DNA of 64,000 bases from Nanobdellati archaeon (GCA_027007025.1 JALTFL010000004.1:4773-68772), one strand, 5' to 3'; shown: positions 16,181 to 56,602, counted from the stretch's first letter. The notes: a model not told the origin generated them from the sequence alone. Program-made: numbers and translations.

Positions 16181-16294
16181 TGGGCCCGGGGGGATTCGAA
16201 CCCCTGGCCTCCTGGTTAAAAGCAACACCTTCAAATCCAATTTTATTAGAATGAATTTGAAACAGGCGCTCTGACCAGGCTGAGCTACGGGCCC
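16181..16294 (-). tRNA. tRNA-Lys (anticodon UUU) with a roughly 39-nt intron at a non-canonical position in the anticodon stem
   Basis: Minus strand reads GGGCCCG-TA-GCTC-AGCCTGGTCA-GAGC-G-CCTG[intron]G-CTTTTAA-CCAGG-AGGCC-AGGGG-TTCGAAT-CCCCC-CGGGCCC-A; acceptor stem 7 bp, canonical D-arm and T-loop; one A:C mismatch at the top of the T-stem. Confidence 0.6.
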
Positions 16295-17749: not shown

Positions 17750-17945
17750 ATATCTTGTAATACACTAGAATATATTAAGATTTCCATGACTTCAAAATCA
17801 ATAGAAATCATCTTCGTTTTCTGTTCCTATTCTTCTTCCTGCCGCGGCTCTTCTGTTTTATGATGTCTTTTCTCTTTAACCGCTTTCCTTTCCGCTTTCC
17901 CTTTCTTGATTTTGGCTGAATTGTTTTCATAAAAACACCTAGAGT

Positions 17946-17953
17946 AAAAAAAA
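17946..17953 (-). terminator. Oligo-T (T8) run immediately 3' of tRNA-Asp
   Basis: Eight T on the minus strand two nt after the discriminator base; archaeal-type oligo-T terminator. Confidence 0.4.
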
Positions 17954-17954
17954 G

Positions 17955-18195
17955 CGCCCCGACCGGGACTTTCAAACACTCGCCAAGTTTCTCTCTTAGC
18001 GCAGGTTCTCTCTTTTCAAAGAGAGAAAGTGCTTTTGAACCCGGGTCCCCGGCTTGCTGCACTCCGGAATTTCTTCCGCTGGCGCTTCTTTCTAAGAAGA
18101 GCCGTTCGACAGACCGGGATCCTAGACCAACGTCCAACCACTTTCTTTCCGTGAACTCTTTCTTTGGAAAGAAAGGGTTCCTAGACTATCGGGGC
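17955..18195 (-). tRNA. tRNA-Asp (anticodon GUC) with three introns (D-loop, anticodon loop 37/38, T-loop)
   Basis: Acceptor GCCCCGA/TCGGGGC, discriminator G; exon pieces GTCTAG...TTGGTCTAGGAT-C-CCGGT-CTGTCG[48-nt intron]A-GCCGG-GGAC-CCGGG-TTCAAA[intron]T-CCCGG; introns carry hairpin repeats; D-loop exon boundaries uncertain. Confidence 0.6.
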
Positions 18196-18238
18196 ACTAA
18201 CAAAAATGATGGACTACTCCATTTAAAAAAGTTTTGAG

Positions 18239-18398
18239 TCCCAGCGGCCGGACTTTCGAAGCCCACCCTGAGTTTCTTTCCCTCAAGGCTCTCTTTTTGA
18301 AAGAAAGGCTTGGTCGAACCAGCAACCTCACGGTTTCAACGATGGATTTCTCCACCATACCACTACAGCCGTGCGCTCTACCATTGAGCTACGCTGGG
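18239..18398 (-). tRNA. tRNA-Tyr (anticodon GUA) with two introns (anticodon loop 37/38, about 28 nt; T-loop, about 60 nt)
   Basis: CCCAGCG-TA-GCTC-AATGGTA-GAGC-G-CACGG-CTGTAG[intron]A-CCGTG-AGGTT-GCTGG-TTCGA[intron]..-CCGGC-CGCTGGG-A; C1:G72 and A73 as expected for archaeal tRNA-Tyr; anticodon intron contains a GGTGGA-GAAA-TCCATC tetraloop hairpin. Confidence 0.65.
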
Positions 18399-18457
18399 AC
18401 AAATCATTTAGACATCCGTAGGTTTAAAAGTTTTTCTTAAAATAAAAAAGAAAAAGA

Positions 18458-22684: not shown

Positions 22685-22895
22685 GCCCGACAGAAAACTT
22701 TCTCTTAGTGCAGCTTCTCTTTTCTAAAGAGAAGATGCTTCTTTTGGTAAAGCTTTTCCAACACCCTTCTTAGAAAGAAGCATACGGAAGAAACCCCGCT
22801 TTCTTTCTCTTAGCCCATGTTCTCTTTCTTTTAAGAAGGAGAAAAATTTTTTCTTTTCCGGACGCGCTTTTCTTTTTTCTAAAAAGAAAAGGGTG
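22685..22895. repeat. Hairpin-repeat region 3' of tRNA-Pro, with a degenerate tRNA-3'-end-like segment
   Basis: Hairpins cttctctt-ttcta-aagagaag and cttttcttttt-tcta-aaaagaaaag; motif ctcttagtgcagcttctc; minus strand ends GTCGGGCTTTTT, resembling the tRNA-Asp 3' end. Confidence 0.5.
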
Positions 22896-22899
22896 TTAG

Positions 22900-23131
22900 T
22901 GGGGCCGCCGAGATTTGAATTCCCGGACCATGCCAACTTCTTTTCCGTTGACGCTTTTCTTTTAAGAAAAGGGTCACTCGGGACCACGTGCATTCCAGGG
23001 TTTCTTTGGTTGAGCTTTCTTTCCCAAAGAAAGATCACCCCAGGCACGCATCCTAGACCAAGTTGTCTGCTCTTTTCTCCCTCTTTTGGTAGAGCTTTTC
23101 TCGGGAGAAAAGGCCTCTAGACCACGGCCCC
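22900..23131 (-). tRNA. tRNA-Pro (anticodon GGG) with three introns (D-loop, anticodon loop 37/38, T-loop 54/55)
   Basis: Acceptor GGGGCCG/CGGCCCC, discriminator A; GTCTAG...TTGGTCTAGGAT-G-CGTGC-CTGGGG[intron]T-GCACG-TGGTC-CCGAG-T[intron]TCAAAT-CTCGG; introns contain hairpins ctttcttt-ccc-aaagaaag and cttttctc-ggg-agaaaag. Confidence 0.6.
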
Positions 23132-23163
23132 ACAGTTAAATTAAAGAACAAATTATTTTAAAA

Positions 23164-36651: not shown

Positions 36652-37258
36652 TATCATCACTTTCCTTAATTTCAATAGCTTTTCCTTCCTTTATTAAGAT
36701 TTCCCCGACGTCTAATGGGAGACTCCCATCATCATCTTTGTTAAAAGGACCATATGTTTCCCCATCCTTCCACAAAAACGCAGGTATGTCTTCGATAAAT
36801 TTCAGCTTTTTTAAACCTTTTTCTTCTTCTTTTTCCTCTCTTTTTATATCAATCGAAGGGGGTGCTTCAAATTTAGACATAAATCTATTCGTATACTCAT
36901 TAACAGTATTTATTATAGAGTTATACATATCCTCCTCTTCAGGAAGCATGTTCTCGGTATTATGAACCCTTGCGGAAAGGTTGTTCAGTGCCTGCATGAC
37001 AATTTTCCTTCTTCTTCTGCTACATATATCCTCAATTATCCTTTTGACATTTCTTAATTCATACTCATTCTTTTCTATTGCCTGCGATGAGAAAACATTA
37101 TTTTTGTCCTTATTTTCATCGATTATCTTTTCCTTATTAGAGATATATTCCTTAATCTTTAAAAAGAAATCAGGAGTTAATTCTTGCAGTGCCCTGTTGT
37201 CCCTCTCCAGCGCCTGTATTTTTCTTATCTCCTCATATGAAATTACTTCACTAGTCAT
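36626..37258 (-). CDS. Probable GINS subunit (Gins51/Gins15-like)
   Basis: Helical N-terminus YEEIRKIQALERDNRALQELTPDFF; located between primase and L44e, as in the conserved primase-GINS pairing. Confidence 0.45.
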   Translation of the reverse strand: MTSEVISYEEIRKIQALERDNRALQELTPDFFLKIKEYISNKEKIIDENKDKNNVFSSQAIEKNEYELRNVKRIIEDICSRRRRKIVMQALNNLSARVHNTENMLPEEEDMYNSIINTVNEYTNRFMSKFEAPPSIDIKREEKEEEKGLKKLKFIEDIPAFLWKDGETYGPFNKDDDGSLPLDVGEILIKEGKAIEIKESDDNEDTKGNQ

Positions 37259-38535
37259 TTCCTTCTCATCCTTTTCATTTTCTTAAATGGGTACACCACA
37301 GGGTTTTTGATTTTCTCACATGTCTTATCTGGTGTACATATCCCCAAGTCTAAGTAATAATTTTGATTCTTGCACCCCGGCGGAAGATATGAACCTTTCA
37401 CCTTTTTATGCCAATTGAGCTGGGAGTTTATATAACTTTCCCGAAGCGGCTCCGGATTGTGCTTGTTCCACTCAAAAACTTCTTTTTTTATGGACTCAAA
37501 GTCCCATCCTACACTTCTCAAGAAATTAATCAAAATGAAAAGGGCTCTCTTGCGTCCATCCTCTAATCCCTTGTAAATGTTCTTTATACACGGCGGGAAA
37601 AACTCTTTTGGGATTGCCTCCTTTGGAATTTCGAAGTCCCCATTAAGCTCTTTTATCTCATTTTTGACATCCTGGTTCATCTTCCAATCAAAAGCCTGTA
37701 TAAAAAGCTGCTTTGCCTCGTTGACTTTGAACCTGTCCAAAAACCCGAGGTTAACTTCAACATTTCTGTACTCCGCCGATTTTTTATCAAATGACAAAAT
37801 ATCCTTTTTGCGTATTGGGATAGAAACAAGCCATGTTTTTTCATTAAAAGTGTATGGCATCCTAAAAAGGTGACGGGACGAAATAGCTACAGTATCTATA
37901 TCCAGAAGTTTATAAGGGTCAAGCTCTCCACCCGCAACAACTTCATCAAATTTCTTTCCTGTTCTTTTCAATATTTTTTTTATATCTCCATCTTCAAACT
38001 GCAAAATTTGCTCGGCAAGCTGGCTTTTTATCATATCACGTATATATCCTGCGATAATTCGTGCACCTTCGGGGAAAAGCAAGCGTGTTTCCTGCCCATT
38101 TATCTCCCTTGGAAATGATTCAAAAGGAATACCTATATGGAAACCCGTTCCTCCGCTAAATTTAACAGAATAATTTTTAATGCCGTGAAATTCAATGGCA
38201 TCACATATCAAATTGGCGCAAATTTTAGAGTATTCCAAATGGCGAGAGTCAATGTCAAATATCAAGTCCCATCCGGTCCTAAGCTCGTCAAGTTCTTTCT
38301 TTTTTATATCCTGCCTAAGCAAAAGTGGGTTTTTCCATCTCTCCATCGAGGCGTGGAAAGAAGTAGCCCCCCTTCTAGCTAATTGAACTATGTCATCTTC
38401 GTATATTAAAGAATCTGGACGTTTACCTACTTTATCATTAAATCGCGTAACTATTTCTCTGCCTCTGGCAAGTGCAAGAATTGCAGATTGTACTTTAGTA
38501 TTTGAATAAAATCTTATTATATCTGATAGATGCAT
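37255..38535 (-). CDS. priS: DNA primase catalytic subunit PriS with C-terminal Cys-containing extension
   Basis: LIFDIDS and SGGTGFHI catalytic motifs; C-terminal about 110 aa contains four Cys (PPC, PPGC, GIC, TC). Confidence 0.7.
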   Translation of the reverse strand: MHLSDIIRFYSNTKVQSAILALARGREIVTRFNDKVGKRPDSLIYEDDIVQLARRGATSFHASMERWKNPLLLRQDIKKKELDELRTGWDLIFDIDSRHLEYSKICANLICDAIEFHGIKNYSVKFSGGTGFHIGIPFESFPREINGQETRLLFPEGARIIAGYIRDMIKSQLAEQILQFEDGDIKKILKRTGKKFDEVVAGGELDPYKLLDIDTVAISSRHLFRMPYTFNEKTWLVSIPIRKKDILSFDKKSAEYRNVEVNLGFLDRFKVNEAKQLFIQAFDWKMNQDVKNEIKELNGDFEIPKEAIPKEFFPPCIKNIYKGLEDGRKRALFILINFLRSVGWDFESIKKEVFEWNKHNPEPLRESYINSQLNWHKKVKGSYLPPGCKNQNYYLDLGICTPDKTCEKIKNPVVYPFKKMKRMRRK

Positions 38536-41199: not shown

Positions 41200-41535
41200 T
41201 TAATCACTCTTCAACTTTAAATATTTTTCATATAACTCGGGATTTAGCTTTGAAAAATCCTGAACAATTTCACCCCGTAGTTCAACGGTTTCTCCTTCAA
41301 GTGGAGGTATAACAACACCCATAACTCTTATGAGTTTTCCAACTTCAATTTTGTTGAATTCATCAGGCTCCAACAAAATTCTCAATGTTGAACCCCCATC
41401 GTCTATCACAATAGACATATTTGAAGCATCCTTCTCAATTACAGTTCCTATAACCTTAACACGTATGTCTGTGGAATTAAGCTCTGAAATCCTTTTTTCA
41501 AATGCGACATTTCTCCTTTTTCTTTCGGATTTCAT
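41200..41535 (-). CDS. OB-fold nucleic-acid-binding protein
   Basis: Start at ATG overlapping the TFS stop (cTGATGAaa); beta-rich RVKVIGTVIEKD...LRILLEPDEF pattern consistent with an OB fold. Confidence 0.45.
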   Translation of the reverse strand: MKSERKRRNVAFEKRISELNSTDIRVKVIGTVIEKDASNMSIVIDDGGSTLRILLEPDEFNKIEVGKLIRVMGVVIPPLEGETVELRGEIVQDFSKLNPELYEKYLKLKSD

Positions 41536-41843
41536 CAGCTGTACTCCCTCCAAACATGCCCACACTTGGTGCATTTGTAAAATCTTGTTGGCGGTTCGTC
41601 GGCAGCTCTTGTCTGAACAACCCAAAAGTAAGCTTCATTGTTTCCACACTTCGGACATTTCGCCTTTGTCTTTGGATGAACCTCAGGATTTTCTTTGGCA
41701 ACCTTCACAGTCTTATCTTTTTTCTTAGACTGCTTTTCTTTTATCTTACCTTCCTTTCCTTTTTTGAGGGTGTAACCACAACTAGAACAAACCAACTTCC
41801 CATTCTTATTTATGATAATACTCCCACATTTAGGACAAAACAT
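41535..41843 (-). CDS. tfs: Transcription factor S (TFS)
   Basis: N-terminal zinc ribbon CPKCG...CSSCG; C-terminal TFIIS-type ribbon CPKCG..QTRAADEPPTRFYKCTKCG with acidic hairpin. Confidence 0.75.
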   Translation of the reverse strand: MFCPKCGSIIINKNGKLVCSSCGYTLKKGKEGKIKEKQSKKKDKTVKVAKENPEVHPKTKAKCPKCGNNEAYFWVVQTRAADEPPTRFYKCTKCGHVWREYS

Positions 41844-42899: not shown

Positions 42900-43922
42900 T
42901 TGGTGTATATGAAAAAAGAATTCAAACACAAAAAGCGCAAACACGCAAAATCCAAGGAGAAAAAACGCGCTAAGAAGCAAGTTGAAAGAGAACCAGTTGT
43001 CATAAAAGTAACTCCATTCGGACTCTTCGCGTTTCACAAAAACAAGCTTGTCAAGAAAAGCATTTGGAAAGAAAACGAGGCGGCTGAGAATTTCTTCAAA
43101 AGAGATGAACTCATAAAAGAATTTAGGTCAAAAGTAGGCATACGCGCTAAATACGAAACTCATTCCATTTTTGGGAGTGAACTCGAGGATTTCGCAAAAA
43201 AACAAGGAATTAAATTCAACTTCCAGAAATTCATGATAGAATTTACAAAACTAAAGATAAAAGCAGGGCTCTCAAAGGATAGAATAATTATACAGGCAGT
43301 CAACACATTTGAAGAGCTCAACAAAATGATTAACATGATGTATGAAAAGCTAAGGGAATGGTACGGATTGTATTGGCCGGAAAGCGTCGAGAAAACAAAA
43401 ACCATTGATGAATTCCTGGAGATAGTCGGCAAAAGGCGCGACGGACAAAGCATGGGCTTTGAATTTGAGGAAGAAGACTTGGAGATAATAGGTGTTACCA
43501 GCGAAGAACTCAAATCCATGATTTCGCTCAAGGAGAAAATATCAAAATATATAGAAAAAGTGATGTCTAAAACAGCACCTAATATGACAAAAGTAGCGGG
43601 TGCTATAGTGGGTGCAAAGTTGATATCAATTGCTGGTGGTATGGAAAAACTCGCCGAAATGCCGTCATCAACAATACAGATACTCGGAGCGGAAAAGGCA
43701 CTATTTAGACATATAAGAAAGGGAACCAAACCACCAAAGTATGGAGTGCTTTTGTCCCACGAGCTCATGAAGAAAGTTAATCTTAAAAAGCGTGGAAAGC
43801 TGGCGCGCATATTGTCCGCCAAGATATCCATTGCCGCAAGAGTGGATTTTTACTCCAAAGGAAGAGATATTATCTGGAAAGGACTTTTGGATGACATAAA
43901 TGAAAAAATAAAAAGAATCTGA
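42900..43922 (+). CDS. nop5: C/D box sRNP protein Nop5 (Nop56/58 homologue)
   Basis: NOP domain GAEKALFRH...KPPKYG; lysine-rich N-terminus. Confidence 0.8.
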   Translation: MVYMKKEFKHKKRKHAKSKEKKRAKKQVEREPVVIKVTPFGLFAFHKNKLVKKSIWKENEAAENFFKRDELIKEFRSKVGIRAKYETHSIFGSELEDFAKKQGIKFNFQKFMIEFTKLKIKAGLSKDRIIIQAVNTFEELNKMINMMYEKLREWYGLYWPESVEKTKTIDEFLEIVGKRRDGQSMGFEFEEEDLEIIGVTSEELKSMISLKEKISKYIEKVMSKTAPNMTKVAGAIVGAKLISIAGGMEKLAEMPSSTIQILGAEKALFRHIRKGTKPPKYGVLLSHELMKKVNLKKRGKLARILSAKISIAARVDFYSKGRDIIWKGLLDDINEKIKRI

Positions 43923-48737: not shown

Positions 48738-49982
48738 ATGGAAGAAACAAATGTTCAAGAAATTGAAACTTATCCTTTGGTTGTGTTTAATTACGGTGGG
48801 AATGAAATAAAATTCGCGGAAGCCACGATATGTAATAATTCCAATGAATTAAAATATTGTGTAAATGAAATCGAACTTGAGGAACATGAAAGCGATATTT
48901 ACTATGAAATCCTAAAACGAATAAAAAAAATTGACAAGGAAAAAAACCTAAGAAAGTTAAGTCAACAAGATGCGTTCAGGTTCATAGACTATAAAATAAA
49001 AGAAACTTGTCATGAGATGAGAGAAGATATTTCCACTCAAGAGAAGACAAGGATAAAATATTTTCTATATAAAAATTACTTTGGATTCGGAGAAATTGAG
49101 CCATTGTTTTATGACAAGGACGTAAAATATATTTTCTGCGAGCGTCCTGGATTGCCGATTTACATTTTTCACAAAAATCCAAGATATGGATTTATGAAAA
49201 CAAACATCGTACTGAGGAGCATAAGAGAATACAAACTGATATCTGAAAATCTCAAATTGAAATCTAAAAAGCTGAGAGAATCTCCTGATTTCTTTGGCAT
49301 ATTGGAGGACAAACAAGTGGTTGAAGTGAGTGATTCTCATAGAGAATTTAGCATAACCCGCTTCTCAAAAATGCCGACATCCCCAAGAGATATGGTAAAA
49401 CTAAAACTAATTCGGAGGGATGTTTTGGTGTATCTATATAGGATAATCAAAAATAGAGGTTCTGTGCTTATCATTGGAGGAAACTCATCCCAAAGAATTC
49501 AATTAGCTAATTCATTGGCTCTCCTTACCGACAAAAAACTGAAAGCAGTCATCTTTGAAAAAACACCCAGTATCATCCTGCCACACAATGACGCATACTA
49601 CAAAGTGCTTCCGCTTTATGAAAAAAAACATAAACACGTGATAAAAGAATACTTGAGGAAAAATCCAGAGCTAGTAATCTCAGCAGAGATTGAAACAAAC
49701 AAGCAAACAATAAAAAACATAAAACATAAGTGTCAAACATTCATAACTATTGAAGCAAACGATTTGGACAATGCAATTAAAATACTTAACAATGAAGTAC
49801 CTGCACCGTGGATATCCTACATAGATGTCATAGTAAAAATAAAGGAATCAATTGGATGGCCACGTGTAGACGAAATTTATGAAATTACAGCATATGACGC
49901 CCAGTCAAAAATGCTTATGATATCTCCAATTTTTTACAACAATGTTTTGAGAAAAAGCAAATTACTTAGCCAGCAAAGTTAA
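48738..49982 (+). CDS. Secretion-ATPase-like protein (FlaI/VirB11/TadA-like layout) with degenerate P-loop
   Basis: VLIIGGNSSQRIQLANSLALL...KAVIFEKTPSIILPHND occupies the position and spacing of Walker A plus the IEDT box, but the GxxGSGKT residues are replaced. Confidence 0.4.
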   Translation: MEETNVQEIETYPLVVFNYGGNEIKFAEATICNNSNELKYCVNEIELEEHESDIYYEILKRIKKIDKEKNLRKLSQQDAFRFIDYKIKETCHEMREDISTQEKTRIKYFLYKNYFGFGEIEPLFYDKDVKYIFCERPGLPIYIFHKNPRYGFMKTNIVLRSIREYKLISENLKLKSKKLRESPDFFGILEDKQVVEVSDSHREFSITRFSKMPTSPRDMVKLKLIRRDVLVYLYRIIKNRGSVLIIGGNSSQRIQLANSLALLTDKKLKAVIFEKTPSIILPHNDAYYKVLPLYEKKHKHVIKEYLRKNPELVISAEIETNKQTIKNIKHKCQTFITIEANDLDNAIKILNNEVPAPWISYIDVIVKIKESIGWPRVDEIYEITAYDAQSKMLMISPIFYNNVLRKSKLLSQQS

Positions 49983-51152
49983 TTCGCCGTCAGTCAACCC
50001 AAATTCTTCCTTGATATGTTTCTTCTTGACTTTCTTTGTCTTTATCAAAATCTTTAACAGGGGAACATAATCCTTCAAAAAGACGCTTGATGAAACATGA
50101 AATTTGGGGGCTATCTTTCTGGATGTTGATTTCATAGAACTTCTTAAATTTTTGCTCTGCGACAACTTAAGGAGCCTTGATGGAAAAGCATACCTCACAA
50201 ATCTCTTGCTCTTGACTGGGGCATTTATATTTATACCTGCAGTGGACAAAATTTTGGCATATTTGTAAAATCCGTAATACTGCCTACGCCTTATCCTGCC
50301 TAAAAATACATCGCTTCTGGAAACATTTTCATAAGCACCAGCAATAGTTATTGGATTTGTGTACTCATTGCAGATGTTCTCAGAAACCCATAGTATACCA
50401 GTATTCAAATCTATGTCCGCTACATCAAACACAATAAGCACGTCCATCGAAAATGGAGACTTAAATATTTTCTGCATTGCTGAGAAGACATTCTTTTTTA
50501 TATTCCTGTCGCACAAAAAGACATTGTCCTTTGTAAGTTTATTGTCAATTGCAATCGATGCTTCCAAATCATTTATTGCTGCCCTTAAATCTCCGTCTGA
50601 AGATTTAGCGAGCAATTCAACTGCGCTATAATCATACTCAATTCCTTCTGAGTTAAGAATTGAAATTAACTTAGCCATAATCTCCTTGTAAGTCAGTTTT
50701 CTGAACTCAACCTTTTCACAATACGGACGTAAGAATTTAAACTTTTGATTCCAAAAATCAAGCCCAATAACAACAACAGGCACACCAGACTTTCGTATAA
50801 GCTCTGCTACTTTAGCAATAGAACGTGAATTTAGAGAATCTATTCCATCTATCAAAACCAATCGTTTTTTCCCAAAGATACTGGCGGTGTTTATAGAGTT
50901 ACTTATTAAGGAATCCATTTTTTCTGTATCTCTCAAATCGTCCGCCGTAAGTTGTATTACTTCATAATCCATTTCTTTTATTATCACACGAATTGAAGCC
51001 GTCTTGCCGACGCCCGGCTGTCCAAATATAAACAAACCCTTTTTCTTTTTATGTGACTCTAAAAAATTGATAATTTTAGATATAGCCAGCTTTTGCCCTA
51101 CTATCTCATCTATCTTCTTTGGAGAATATTTAATCAATAAATTTGTCATCAT
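49962..51152 (-). CDS. rfcL: Replication factor C large subunit
   Basis: Walker A FGQPGVGKT, AAA+ clamp-loader layout, lysine-rich C-terminus. Confidence 0.8.
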   Translation of the reverse strand: MMTNLLIKYSPKKIDEIVGQKLAISKIINFLESHKKKKGLFIFGQPGVGKTASIRVIIKEMDYEVIQLTADDLRDTEKMDSLISNSINTASIFGKKRLVLIDGIDSLNSRSIAKVAELIRKSGVPVVVIGLDFWNQKFKFLRPYCEKVEFRKLTYKEIMAKLISILNSEGIEYDYSAVELLAKSSDGDLRAAINDLEASIAIDNKLTKDNVFLCDRNIKKNVFSAMQKIFKSPFSMDVLIVFDVADIDLNTGILWVSENICNEYTNPITIAGAYENVSRSDVFLGRIRRRQYYGFYKYAKILSTAGININAPVKSKRFVRYAFPSRLLKLSQSKNLRSSMKSTSRKIAPKFHVSSSVFLKDYVPLLKILIKTKKVKKKHIKEEFGLTDGELTLLAK

Positions 51153-55700: not shown

Positions 55701-55905
55701 AACCGACAAGGCTAGAGCTACAGTAATCATCTCAGATGATAAACTAAGGAGTAAAATAAAGCCATATCTGTCAAAATTGGAAAATAAAACAGGAACTTCT
55801 ATAAGTGTTATTGCTGAAGGCACGCCAAATGAAAAAGTTACAAAAGAGATTAAAATCAAAGGAAAGCACATAATCGTTGGATTATCCCCTAAAAAAATTT
55901 TATAA
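52774..55905 (+). CDS. ileS: Class I aminoacyl-tRNA synthetase, most likely isoleucyl-tRNA synthetase
   Basis: HIGH-type FHVGH, GWDMHGLP, KMSKSLGN; 1043 aa is typical of archaeal IleRS; LeuRS not fully excluded. Confidence 0.6.
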   Translation: MKKYSPKETEEEILKFWTKNKIYKKQKELGKDGPKFYWLCGPPYTSGKFHVGHFWNYASLKDPLFRYKRKQGFDVWDRGGWDMHGLPTSRKVMAKLGIKTKDEIESFGVGKFVKECENFSKETMEKMTKDYVRWGVWFDHKNAYMPITNDFMEGVWWGIKKAWENGFLYEGKKVMAWCPESETVAAKHELEYKEVTDDSIFLKFKIKGEEKTFLVIWTTTPWTIPFNLGVMANPDITYTYARAGDETWIVAKELLEKVSEVANIKLEPIKEIQGKELESIEYEPFLKDDIPKIKELQKENKWAFKVLLSKEYVETTSGTGLVHCAPGCGPEDYEVGRKYKLPAFNEVDSKGYFPKDMGVFSGWRARFDDKKFIQFFKEKGNLVAVQKYKHEYPFHERSKSPVIFRTTKQWFFAVEKIKDKLLKWNKKVKWIPKWAGEKTFDNWIANLKDISITRQRYWGTPIPIWKCEKCDNYTVVGSLDELKKLSGKKPKSMHKPWIDEITFKCDKCGGTMKRIPDIGDVWLDAGCTSWISLYFPQRKDLMEKYWPADFILEAKDQIRGWFNLLFDTAGVTGLGIPFLNSYMTGWVNDAKGRKMSKSLGNIIDPYEVVDKFGTDTVRYYMMGAAQPGVDMNYNHRDIEVKFRNISILWNIHNYLIDFVNTNKLKLPKNPKLGIEEKYILSRTHSTIKKVTELYDNYKLNEVPIEIEKLFLDLSRVYIKSIRDKASSGTKEEKEAVAFAIYESLIAVLNMFGTVAPFVCDKMYQNLKPVFNLKQKSIQLFKWPEANEELIDETIERSVETANEIITGILSIRDKKGIGVRWPLSKALVYSNDELNLDKIKSIILNQTNVKEIKQIKRSPEWIKLQIKVRHGNLAKKFKGLEPKIVGTLIQMSPESVKSKLDKEGKFEIDVDGERYEVNSNDVYIEEIMPEEWGSVNMTNGKVYLNLSQNNELLAEGFAREIARRIQDLRKELKLSKTDKARATVIISDDKLRSKIKPYLSKLENKTGTSISVIAEGTPNEKVTKEIKIKGKHIIVGLSPKKIL

Positions 55906-55948
55906 ACTTTACCCTTCTTTATAAAGCAACGAATTTTCTGGTGATAAG

Positions 55949-56602
55949 ATGATTAAGACAATAAAAAAGAAAAAAACAGCTTCTAAAAAGAGAACTGCTA
56001 AAAAAACTGTAAAAAAAACAACTAAAAAAGCAGTCAAAACCGCATCTAAAAAATCAACAAAATCCAAAAAACCGACATATACAATCCAAAATGTTGTGGC
56101 TTCAGCAAGCTTACACCATGATATCCCTCTTGAAAAGGTAACAATCAAACTCCCAAACACGGAATATAATCCCGAACAGTTTCCGGGATTAGTATTGCGA
56201 TTGATGAAAGGAAAAACGGCACTTATATTCTCATCCGGAAAGATAGTGTGCACCGGAGCGAAGTCAGAAACAGAATTGAAAGAAACTGTAAAGATGATTA
56301 TAAAAGAACTAAAAAAAGTAAACATAATAATACGCAGGAAACCGGACATTACAATCCAAAATATGGTTGCGTCAGGCGACATAAATATGACATTGAACCT
56401 CAACAAGCTCGCATTCAAGCTTGAAAACGCAGAGTATGAACCTGAACAATTTCCAGGACTTGTTTACAAAGTCCCAAATTCACACATAACTTTCTTGCTG
56501 TTCGGCACAGGAAAAATAGTCTGTACCGGCGCTAAAAATGAGAAGGAAATAAAAGACGCAATTCATAAATTGGTACTAACACTCAAGAAGATAAGTAAAT
56601 AA
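55949..56602 (+). CDS. tbp: TATA-box-binding protein with about 40-aa lysine-rich N-terminal extension
   Basis: Two TBP direct repeats (IQNVVASASL...GKIVCTGAKSE and IQNMVASGDI...GKIVCTGAKNE) preceded by a K/T/A-rich tail. Confidence 0.85.
   Translation: MIKTIKKKKTASKKRTAKKTVKKTTKKAVKTASKKSTKSKKPTYTIQNVVASASLHHDIPLEKVTIKLPNTEYNPEQFPGLVLRLMKGKTALIFSSGKIVCTGAKSETELKETVKMIIKELKKVNIIIRRKPDITIQNMVASGDINMTLNLNKLAFKLENAEYEPEQFPGLVYKVPNSHITFLLFGTGKIVCTGAKNEKEIKDAIHKLVLTLKKISK

Follow-up and report, generated by a model that had tools for sequence, protein, structure and literature searches.

The 64,000-nucleotide (nt) stretch of DNA analyzed here (the window) encodes a TATA-binding protein (TBP) in which two intact TBP repeats are preceded by a lysine-rich N-terminal tail of 42 residues. 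We favor, with a probability of about 55%, the reading that this is a bona fide TBP carrying a slippage-grown, disordered polycation which, by analogy with the tails of other DNA-bending proteins, may serve as a putative non-specific DNA anchor that stabilizes the TBP-DNA complex. TBP is the most conserved initiation factor common to archaea and eukaryotes, and the model archaeal TBPs are acidic and tail-less and bind DNA only fleetingly. The orthologues at this one locus form a series with no tail, an N-terminal tail (net charge +10 to +23) or a C-terminal tail (up to +46), which offers a ready natural experiment on the influence of a disordered polycation on promoter search, DNA bending and residence time. 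The electrostatics of basal transcription thus vary far more across uncultivated archaea than model organisms suggest.

Identity of the TBP gene

The gene lies at positions 55949-56602 on the plus strand, exactly where an earlier model-generated reading of the same DNA (the first-pass annotation) had placed it. Its 217-aa product matches a single Pfam family, TBP (PF00352), in two stretches (E-value 5e-60), the best of which covers residues 133-214. Comparison of the query core with solved structures gave E-values of 3e-49 for Methanocaldococcus jannaschii TBP (MjTBP; 2Z8U) and 3e-47 for Pyrococcus woesei TBP (1PCZ/1AIS/1D3U); over all solved archaeal TBPs, including 1MP9, the values ran from 3e-49 to 8e-47 and query residues 41-216 were covered. 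In an AlphaFold2 model built from 66 relatives, the order S1-H1-S2-S3-S4-S5-H2 occurs twice, with pLDDT above 90 over residues 43-217. None of the residues N48, N138, F78, F94, F168 and F185 varies in the alignment of these 66 sequences, and all of them align with their counterparts in 2Z8U and 1PCZ. By the positions known from yeast and plant TBP-DNA structures, N48 and N138 correspond to the central minor-groove Asn of each S1 strand, and F78/F94 and F168/F185 to the intercalating Phe pairs that kink the TATA box.

The first repeat (56075-56335, plus strand; residues ~43-129, with N48, F78 and F94) is delimited by Pfam, by the AlphaFold2 elements from E43-54 to H107-122 and by the invariant columns, and the second (56345-56590, plus strand; residues 133-214, with N138, F168 and F185) by the same three lines of evidence. 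The Pfam stretches, the predicted saddle and the invariant Asn and Phe residues bear out the earlier claim that both repeats are intact. Only the residues ISK separate the core from the stop codon (56600-56602, plus strand), and the query has no C-terminal tail.

The gene order IleRS-TBP-MCM-SHMT is common to the query and to its N-tailed and tail-less orthologues, the tail-less one being a 182-aa TBP with 88-89% core identity in the same position. The C-tailed locus lies on a shorter contig, on which the order TBP-MCM is seen; MCM is directly downstream of TBP in all three orthologous loci that were fetched (L085, L086 and L087). The closest proteins are labelled Nanoarchaeota, Nanoarchaeia, Woesearchaeota, Aenigmarchaeota or Parvarchaeota, and the sequence belongs to a DPANN metagenome-assembled genome that is also present in GCA_015522785.1 and in ENA REYS20-1 scaffolds (up to 528 kb). 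At the level of sequence, these results show the query gene to be that of an orthologous, functional TBP of a DPANN archaeon of the Nanoarchaeota/Woesearchaeota type, for which DNA bending and recruitment of TFB and RNAP are predicted.

The N-terminal tail and its translation start

The tail comprises codons 1-42 (55949-56074, plus strand), MIKTIKKKKTASKKRTAKKTVKKTTKKAVKTASKKSTKSKKP, and was delimited by composition and the AlphaFold2 model; it follows a [T/A/S/V]xKK tetrapeptide rhythm. The 45 residues ahead of I46, the first conserved core residue (IQNVVAS), include 19 K (a density of 42%), 10 T, 4 A, 4 S and a single R, with no D or E, and the tail lacks G and Q; at the K+R frequency of the window (0.144), the chance of at least 20 K/R in 45 residues is 1.2e-6. 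Residues 1-42 are modelled as coil, and pLDDT is 53-66 in 10-residue blocks over residues 1-40, so that the segment is predicted to be intrinsically disordered with a charge of roughly +20. Query residues 41-42 pair with residues 7-10 of 2Z8U, 1PCZ/1AIS/1D3U and 1MP9, and the query therefore has ~35 extra N-terminal residues, in agreement with the earlier description of an N-terminus of ~40 lysine-rich residues that is atypical for archaeal TBP. After the 42-residue tract the query reads PTYT-IQNVVAS, where the tail-less orthologue reads MTKKIE-IQNVVAS.

An in-frame stop codon is located 9 codons upstream of the ATG (55922-55924). From codon 1 onward, the frame contains no further ATG, GTG or TTG until the GTG at V50, which lies inside strand S1 and past the invariant N48. 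The region of the 43-nt IleRS-TBP spacer holds a putative TBP promoter (55898-55925, plus strand) with two TATA-like boxes, TTTTATAA at 55898-55905, which overlaps the IleRS stop codon, and TTTATAAA at 55918-55925, the best match, 31 nt upstream of the ATG; both are kept in the orthologous locus L085. A Shine-Dalgarno (SD)-like GGTGAT (55940-55945, plus strand) stands 3 nt upstream of the ATG. The sequence ttctGGTGATaa(a/g/c) is found immediately 5' of the ATG in the query, in the N-tailed L085 (protein P0001, 94% core identity to the query), in the tail-less L086 (P0012, 88-89%) and in the C-tailed L087 (P0019, 85%). The DNA of the query and P0001 is near-identical across the promoter and SD, and a single 21-nt in-frame indel falls within the tail. 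Since the SD and ATG are fixed regardless of tail state and the indel is in frame, the tail is best described as an in-frame insertion behind a fixed start.

Long-tailed genes at six other loci (L006, L029, L033, L058, L066 and L070) have GGGGG or GGAGG 5-10 nt before the upstream ATG, as do nearly all TBP genes before the chosen ATG in the 80 species-representative genomes of the lineage; for L032, L039, L047 and L065 the first ATG was over-extended and a later start was used. The same 217-aa product was called by independent gene callers in four assemblies. On this gene-structure evidence, the query tail is confirmed as real and translated. The first-pass annotation had named a true start downstream of the lysine-rich segment as the finding that would overturn it; what we find is a frame without a start before V50 and a conserved promoter, SD and ATG.

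Electrostatics of the core and tail

The net charge is +8 for the query core (pI 9.45) and +29 for the complete protein (pI 10.1). The cores of its relatives have a median net charge of +4 (range -7 to +12), and tail charge shows no compensation for core charge (rho 0.08). The MjTBP core was used in a control search, and the Methanococcales and Archaeoglobi TBPs that it retrieved are 179-188 aa long, have no tails and show a median core charge of -9. In MjTBP there is an acidic surplus of 11 residues, and the yeast TBP core has a charge of +10 (Gietl et al., PMC4041446). The same study describes archaeal TBP-DNA complexes as extremely dynamic, very short-lived and salt-promoted, yeast TBP as binding electrostatically, and the complex lifetimes as differing by orders of magnitude (PMC4041446).

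The residue before the central S1 Asn, Q47, is Gln in the query (IQNVVAS), as in eukaryotic TBP, and Glu in P. woesei TBP (IENIVAS). In thermophilic archaeal TBPs, a conserved Glu has been linked to cation bridging to DNA (PMC4041446); if Q47 is that cation-bridging position, then the absence of Glu would fit an electrostatic binding mode.

Distribution of tails among relatives

We assembled 194 complete relatives of the Nanoarchaeota/Woesearchaeota type of DPANN (113 proteins, 80 loci and the query), with core bounds set by alignment to query residues 46-214. A basic N-terminal extension was defined as at least 20 aa with a net charge of at least +6, and a basic C-terminal extension as at least 15 aa with the same charge. 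By these thresholds 42 proteins have a basic N-tail, 8 a basic C-tail, none both and 144 neither; the exclusivity of N- and C-tails is uninformative, as about 1.7 proteins with both were expected. The length of the N-terminal extension is continuous (6-69 aa, median 12), and MAKK or MVKK is the commonest start. All 60 extensions of at least 22 aa are net positive, 48 of them by at least +6, with none acidic or neutral. No conserved motif or fixed lysine position was found across the tails; composition alone is conserved.

When 183 distinct cores are placed on an average-linkage tree, Fitch parsimony needs at least 25 changes of tail state (label shuffles: mean 44, minimum 38); tail state thus carries phylogenetic signal, yet with many gains and losses. 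The query subclade (P0001-4, P0006, P0007, P0009 and P0016) is N-tailed throughout, with tails of 31-67 aa and +10 to +23 at 85-94% core identity, and the tail is kept through this subclade while its sequence diverges. Among equally close relatives are an MVKSLT-type group with basic C-terminal tails of 13-79 aa and others, P0012 and P0014 among them, that lack substantial tails. The C-terminal tail of P0019 (L087:422-1189) reaches 79 aa and +46 behind a short MVKTKYT N-terminus, and the lysine tract of P0022, P0026 and P0017 is likewise C-terminal, at the same TBP-MCM locus. These results show that in this lineage tails have often arisen, vanished or changed length, at one end of the protein or the other, and that they are always net basic. 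The suggestion of a lineage-wide trait therefore stands in so far as tails recur in the TBPs of the lineage; the trait is polymorphic, an N-tail of at least 20 aa and +6 being present in 8 of the 80 species representatives, and one of at least 30 aa and +10 in 3 of the 80.

Several further TBP variants were observed. The MCM gene beside P0019 contains an intein (Intein_splicing/LAGLIDADG). A second metagenomic TBP group (P0154, P0157, P0162, P0163/P0168 and P0174), with an MSEFEIK N-terminus and roughly 50% identity to MjTBP, has H1-like K/P/A-rich C-tails of 25-69 aa, some with an acidic E-block before the basic block, and an MTRIR...AGLLRRG group (e.g., P0160, P0171-173 and P0195) has P/S/A/R-rich C-tails of ~49 aa. 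Eight TBP-like proteins of 269-289 aa (P0008, P0027, P0035, P0122, P0127, P0128, P0136 and P0141) apparently have three TBP repeats, the extra one before or after the normal pair; these are possibly artefacts of assembly or gene calling, because all lie on short contigs of 1-12 kb.

Basic tracts elsewhere in the window

The first-pass annotation had pointed to similar lysine-rich segments in three other proteins. The likeness is clear for Nop5 (Nop domain, 42909-43922, plus strand), in which a basic N-terminal extension of ~27 aa, MKKEFKHKKRKHAKSKEKKRAKKQVER (14/25 K/R), precedes the usual N-terminal domain; as for TBP, a GGTG stands shortly upstream of the start codon, here by 3-4 nt. It is partial for TFS (41535-41843, minus strand; N-terminal RPB9-type and C-terminal TFIIS zinc ribbons), whose linker LKKGKEGKIKEKQSKKKDKTVKVAKENPEVHPKTKAK is of a mixed K/E-rich type (12/25), and in the RFC large subunit (49962-51152, minus strand) it is limited to a short basic patch at the C-terminus (9/25). 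A tract of +11 in 25 aa occurs in 2 of the ~60 proteins of the window, TBP and Nop5. Of the 389 ORFs examined around TBP in related genomes, 10 reach a net charge of at least +11 in a 25-aa window; these 10 include three TBPs and at least two ORFs that seem spurious. Comparable tracts were found in ~1-2% of roughly 310 non-TBP neighbour proteins. These counts lend little weight to a proteome-wide lysine trait, which is not general and was rejected; the polycationic tracts are therefore confined to a few nucleic-acid-binding proteins.

Other features of the window were recorded in the course of the search. The most K/R-rich ORF (17808-18137, minus strand) has no Pfam match, lies in a GC-rich island and is probably not a gene. 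GC-rich islands at ~17900-18400 and ~22850-23150 (47-48% GC vs 38% for the window) hold only this and another R/K/G-rich ORF without Pfam matches (22724-23047, also on the minus strand), and may be structured non-coding RNA genes outside the Rfam models. An Rfam tRNA match of 114 nt (16181-16294, minus strand; 49.5 bits) presumably contains an intron, and ARAGORN reported none; a second tRNA-like Rfam match (18307-18392, minus strand) scored 28.4 bits, just under the gathering score. A 426-aa protein (37255-38535, minus strand) has matches, both near threshold, to the two DNA primase subunit families, PF01896 (small) and PF04104 (large), and appears from these matches to be a fused PriS-PriL primase with a short basic tail end, KKMKRMRRK.

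Proposed function of the tail

In solved TBP-DNA complexes, strand S1, through its conserved Asn, spans the minor groove in the middle of the TATA box. The last tail lysines of the query, K40 and K41, are only 7 residues ahead of N48, and on the geometry of these known structures the tail should therefore leave the saddle beside the DNA backbone; for this reason we propose that it is a non-specific electrostatic anchor. Such an anchor would raise both the on-rate and the residence time of TBP, allow sliding or retention on DNA, and neutralize phosphates around the sharply bent TATA DNA, so that the TBP-DNA (and TFB) complex would live longer. Together with the basic core (+8), the tail could move the protein away from the binding mode of the acidic model archaeal TBPs, which is transient and promoted by salt, and toward the electrostatic mode of eukaryotic TBP, acting like the basic tails of HMGB-type minor-groove benders and the lysine tails of H1 and HU. 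C-terminal tails of 40-79 aa may be long enough to reach DNA as well, and the existence of N- and C-terminal versions in sister orthologues is what a role for charge, and not for position, would predict. Some extra non-specific nucleic-acid affinity from the tail is thus plausible. Judged from the orthologues, the tail is dispensable for TBP function, because turnover is high (at least 25 changes over 183 cores) and tail-less orthologues exist at 88-89% core identity.

Origin of the tail and alternative explanations

The DNA of the tail is 60% A, and its Lys codons are 16 AAA and 3 AAG. Tail-coding DNA at 55993-56071 (plus strand) contains imperfect tandem repeats detected by TRF, with periods of 12, 24 and 9 nt that match the xxKK rhythm of the peptide. 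Repeats and rhythm together point to slippage or duplication, and the tail may have started as the short basic N-terminus that is common in the lineage (MAKKExK) and have been lengthened in frame as 12-nt (xxKK) units slipped or were duplicated. The same observations would be accommodated if the tail were a tolerated low-complexity by-product of slippage in A-rich Lys codons beside a basic MAKK N-terminus, with no selected function and with harmful compositions, e.g., acidic or hydrophobic ones, as the sole target of filtering. This alternative is possible, and we give it clearly less credence than a DNA anchor. It would also explain why length varies continuously, why tails come and go, why orthologues with 88-89% core identity at the same locus have none, and why a substantial tail is present in only ~10% of species representatives; indeed, nearly neutral slippage filtered only against acidic composition would look identical.

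Several results nevertheless sit poorly with slippage as the whole explanation. Across locus GC contents of 25-60%, neither tail length (Spearman rho 0.13, p 0.26) nor tail charge (rho -0.03) depends on GC, and AT-bias was rejected as the driver of tails on this null correlation. Lysine makes up 41% of the residues in the pooled tails, ahead of A (9%), T (8%), V (7%), S (6%), and E and P (5% each), and N only 1.5%; the window proteome has 5.3% N, 8.7% L and 4.4% F. Asn codons are single-step neighbours of AAA, Asn being the commonest such neighbour, yet Asn is strongly depleted. GC independence and Asn depletion mean that mutational bias alone does not account for the tail pattern. In addition, a by-product should not be so consistently positive (60 of 60 long extensions), so rare in neighbour proteins or so persistent across a whole subclade despite sequence divergence, and a +20 chain 7 residues from a DNA-contacting Asn would hardly be biophysically silent. 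The all-basic, Asn-poor and GC-independent long tails, retained in the query subclade and found at either terminus, look more like the outcome of a constraint on charge than of drift. If the tails should prove neutral, then they would offer a clean case of slippage-driven low-complexity growth in an essential, highly conserved protein.

An altogether different role for the tail is improbable: it might be a platform for lysine modification (acetylation, methylation, or ubiquitin-like tagging leading to TBP turnover), an RNA-binding or condensate-forming segment, or a docking site for an acidic partner. Its histone/H1-tail-like composition would suit such roles, as would the similar N-terminal tract of Nop5, an RNA-binding protein encoded in the same window, and there is a precedent in a haloarchaeal TBP that is under the control of ubiquitin-like modification and of turnover by the proteasome (PMC4895103). 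However, the tails share composition only, with no conserved motif or fixed lysine position, they work from either terminus, and this analysis identified no modifying enzyme or partner. Finally, an annotation artefact, in which translation begins downstream and the lysine tract is a 5' leader, was rejected as extremely improbable: nothing was found in its support beyond the weakness of an open frame as coding evidence on its own (because A-rich sequence has few stop codons), whereas a start at V50, the first one available, would delete part of S1 including N48, the SD and ATG positions are identical in tailed and tail-less orthologues, strong SDs precede the tail codons in six other species, and the 21-nt indel relative to the 94%-identical orthologue is in frame.

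The DNA-anchor reading of the query could be extended to a convergent, selected adaptation in several uncultivated archaeal lineages, by which transient, salt-promoted TBP-DNA binding would become long-lived and electrostatic. We regard this as tentative, and equally so its scope, which would span the N- and C-tails of the DPANN proteins and the K/P/A-rich C-tails of another archaeal group. If true, convergent tails would be a built-in analogue of the eukaryotic basic core plus TFIIA or HMGB-type helpers, and, in small-genome symbionts, might make up for a reduced set of initiation factors or for a low ionic strength inside the cell.

Comparison with known systems

Lysine-rich tails on archaeal TBP were not described in the open-access full-text literature that was searched, in which only the variable N-terminal domain of eukaryotic TBP is discussed; several tailed relatives have been deposited simply as 'TATA-box-binding protein'. 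Canonical archaeal TBPs (2Z8U; 1PCZ/1AIS/1D3U; 1MP9) belong to the same family as the query and share its fold, two repeats and Asn/Phe contacts, the ~170-aa core aligning end to end. They differ in having fewer than 10 residues before S1, compared with 42-45 in the query, and in charge: acidic residues outnumber basic ones by 11 in MjTBP, and the control cores have a median of -9, whereas the query is at +8 in its core and at +29 overall. The C-terminal tail of P. woesei TBP is acidic, not basic.

Eukaryotic TBP resembles the query in having a basic core (yeast +10, PMC4041446) and a variable low-complexity N-terminal extension before the conserved core, a domain that is lineage-variable and non-conserved (PMC3597702). 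The eukaryotic N-terminal domains are not homologous to the tail; they are Q/S/P-rich or otherwise non-polylysine and mediate factor interactions, whereas the query extension is a pure polycation that, unlike its eukaryotic counterpart, is placed at the C-terminus in some relatives. No sequence relationship between the two was found: core-only eukaryotic chains match from query residues 43-46 onward, and the matches of full-length chains, which reach back to query residues 17-38, are low-complexity and were taken as non-specific.

Basic tails are known from other DNA benders and DNA-binding proteins, including the N-tail of yeast NHP6A, the basic regions of HMG-D and LEF-1, the C-terminal domain of H1, and HU of actinobacteria and Deinococcus. 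Like the query, HMGB, H1 and HU combine a folded DNA-bending or DNA-binding domain with a disordered tract of K and small residues (A/T/S/P) with xxKK-type repeats, in which charge density is conserved and sequence is not; the folded domain is unrelated, and the Pfam search found no HMG, H1 or HU domain in the query. Eukaryotic histone N-terminal tails are likewise lysine-rich, disordered and N-terminal, whereas the query has no histone fold and no conserved modification motifs. The label "histone-tail-like" in the first-pass annotation thus holds for composition (disordered, K-rich, small residues) and not for descent: TBP was the only family in the Pfam search, which found no histone or H1 domain, and the query is therefore not a histone or H1 member, its resemblance being compositional. 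Set against the compositions of the H3/H4 and the H1/HU tails, the K density of the query tail (42%) and its lack of G, Q and, but for one residue, R place it nearer to the tails of H1 and HU than to those of H3 and H4.
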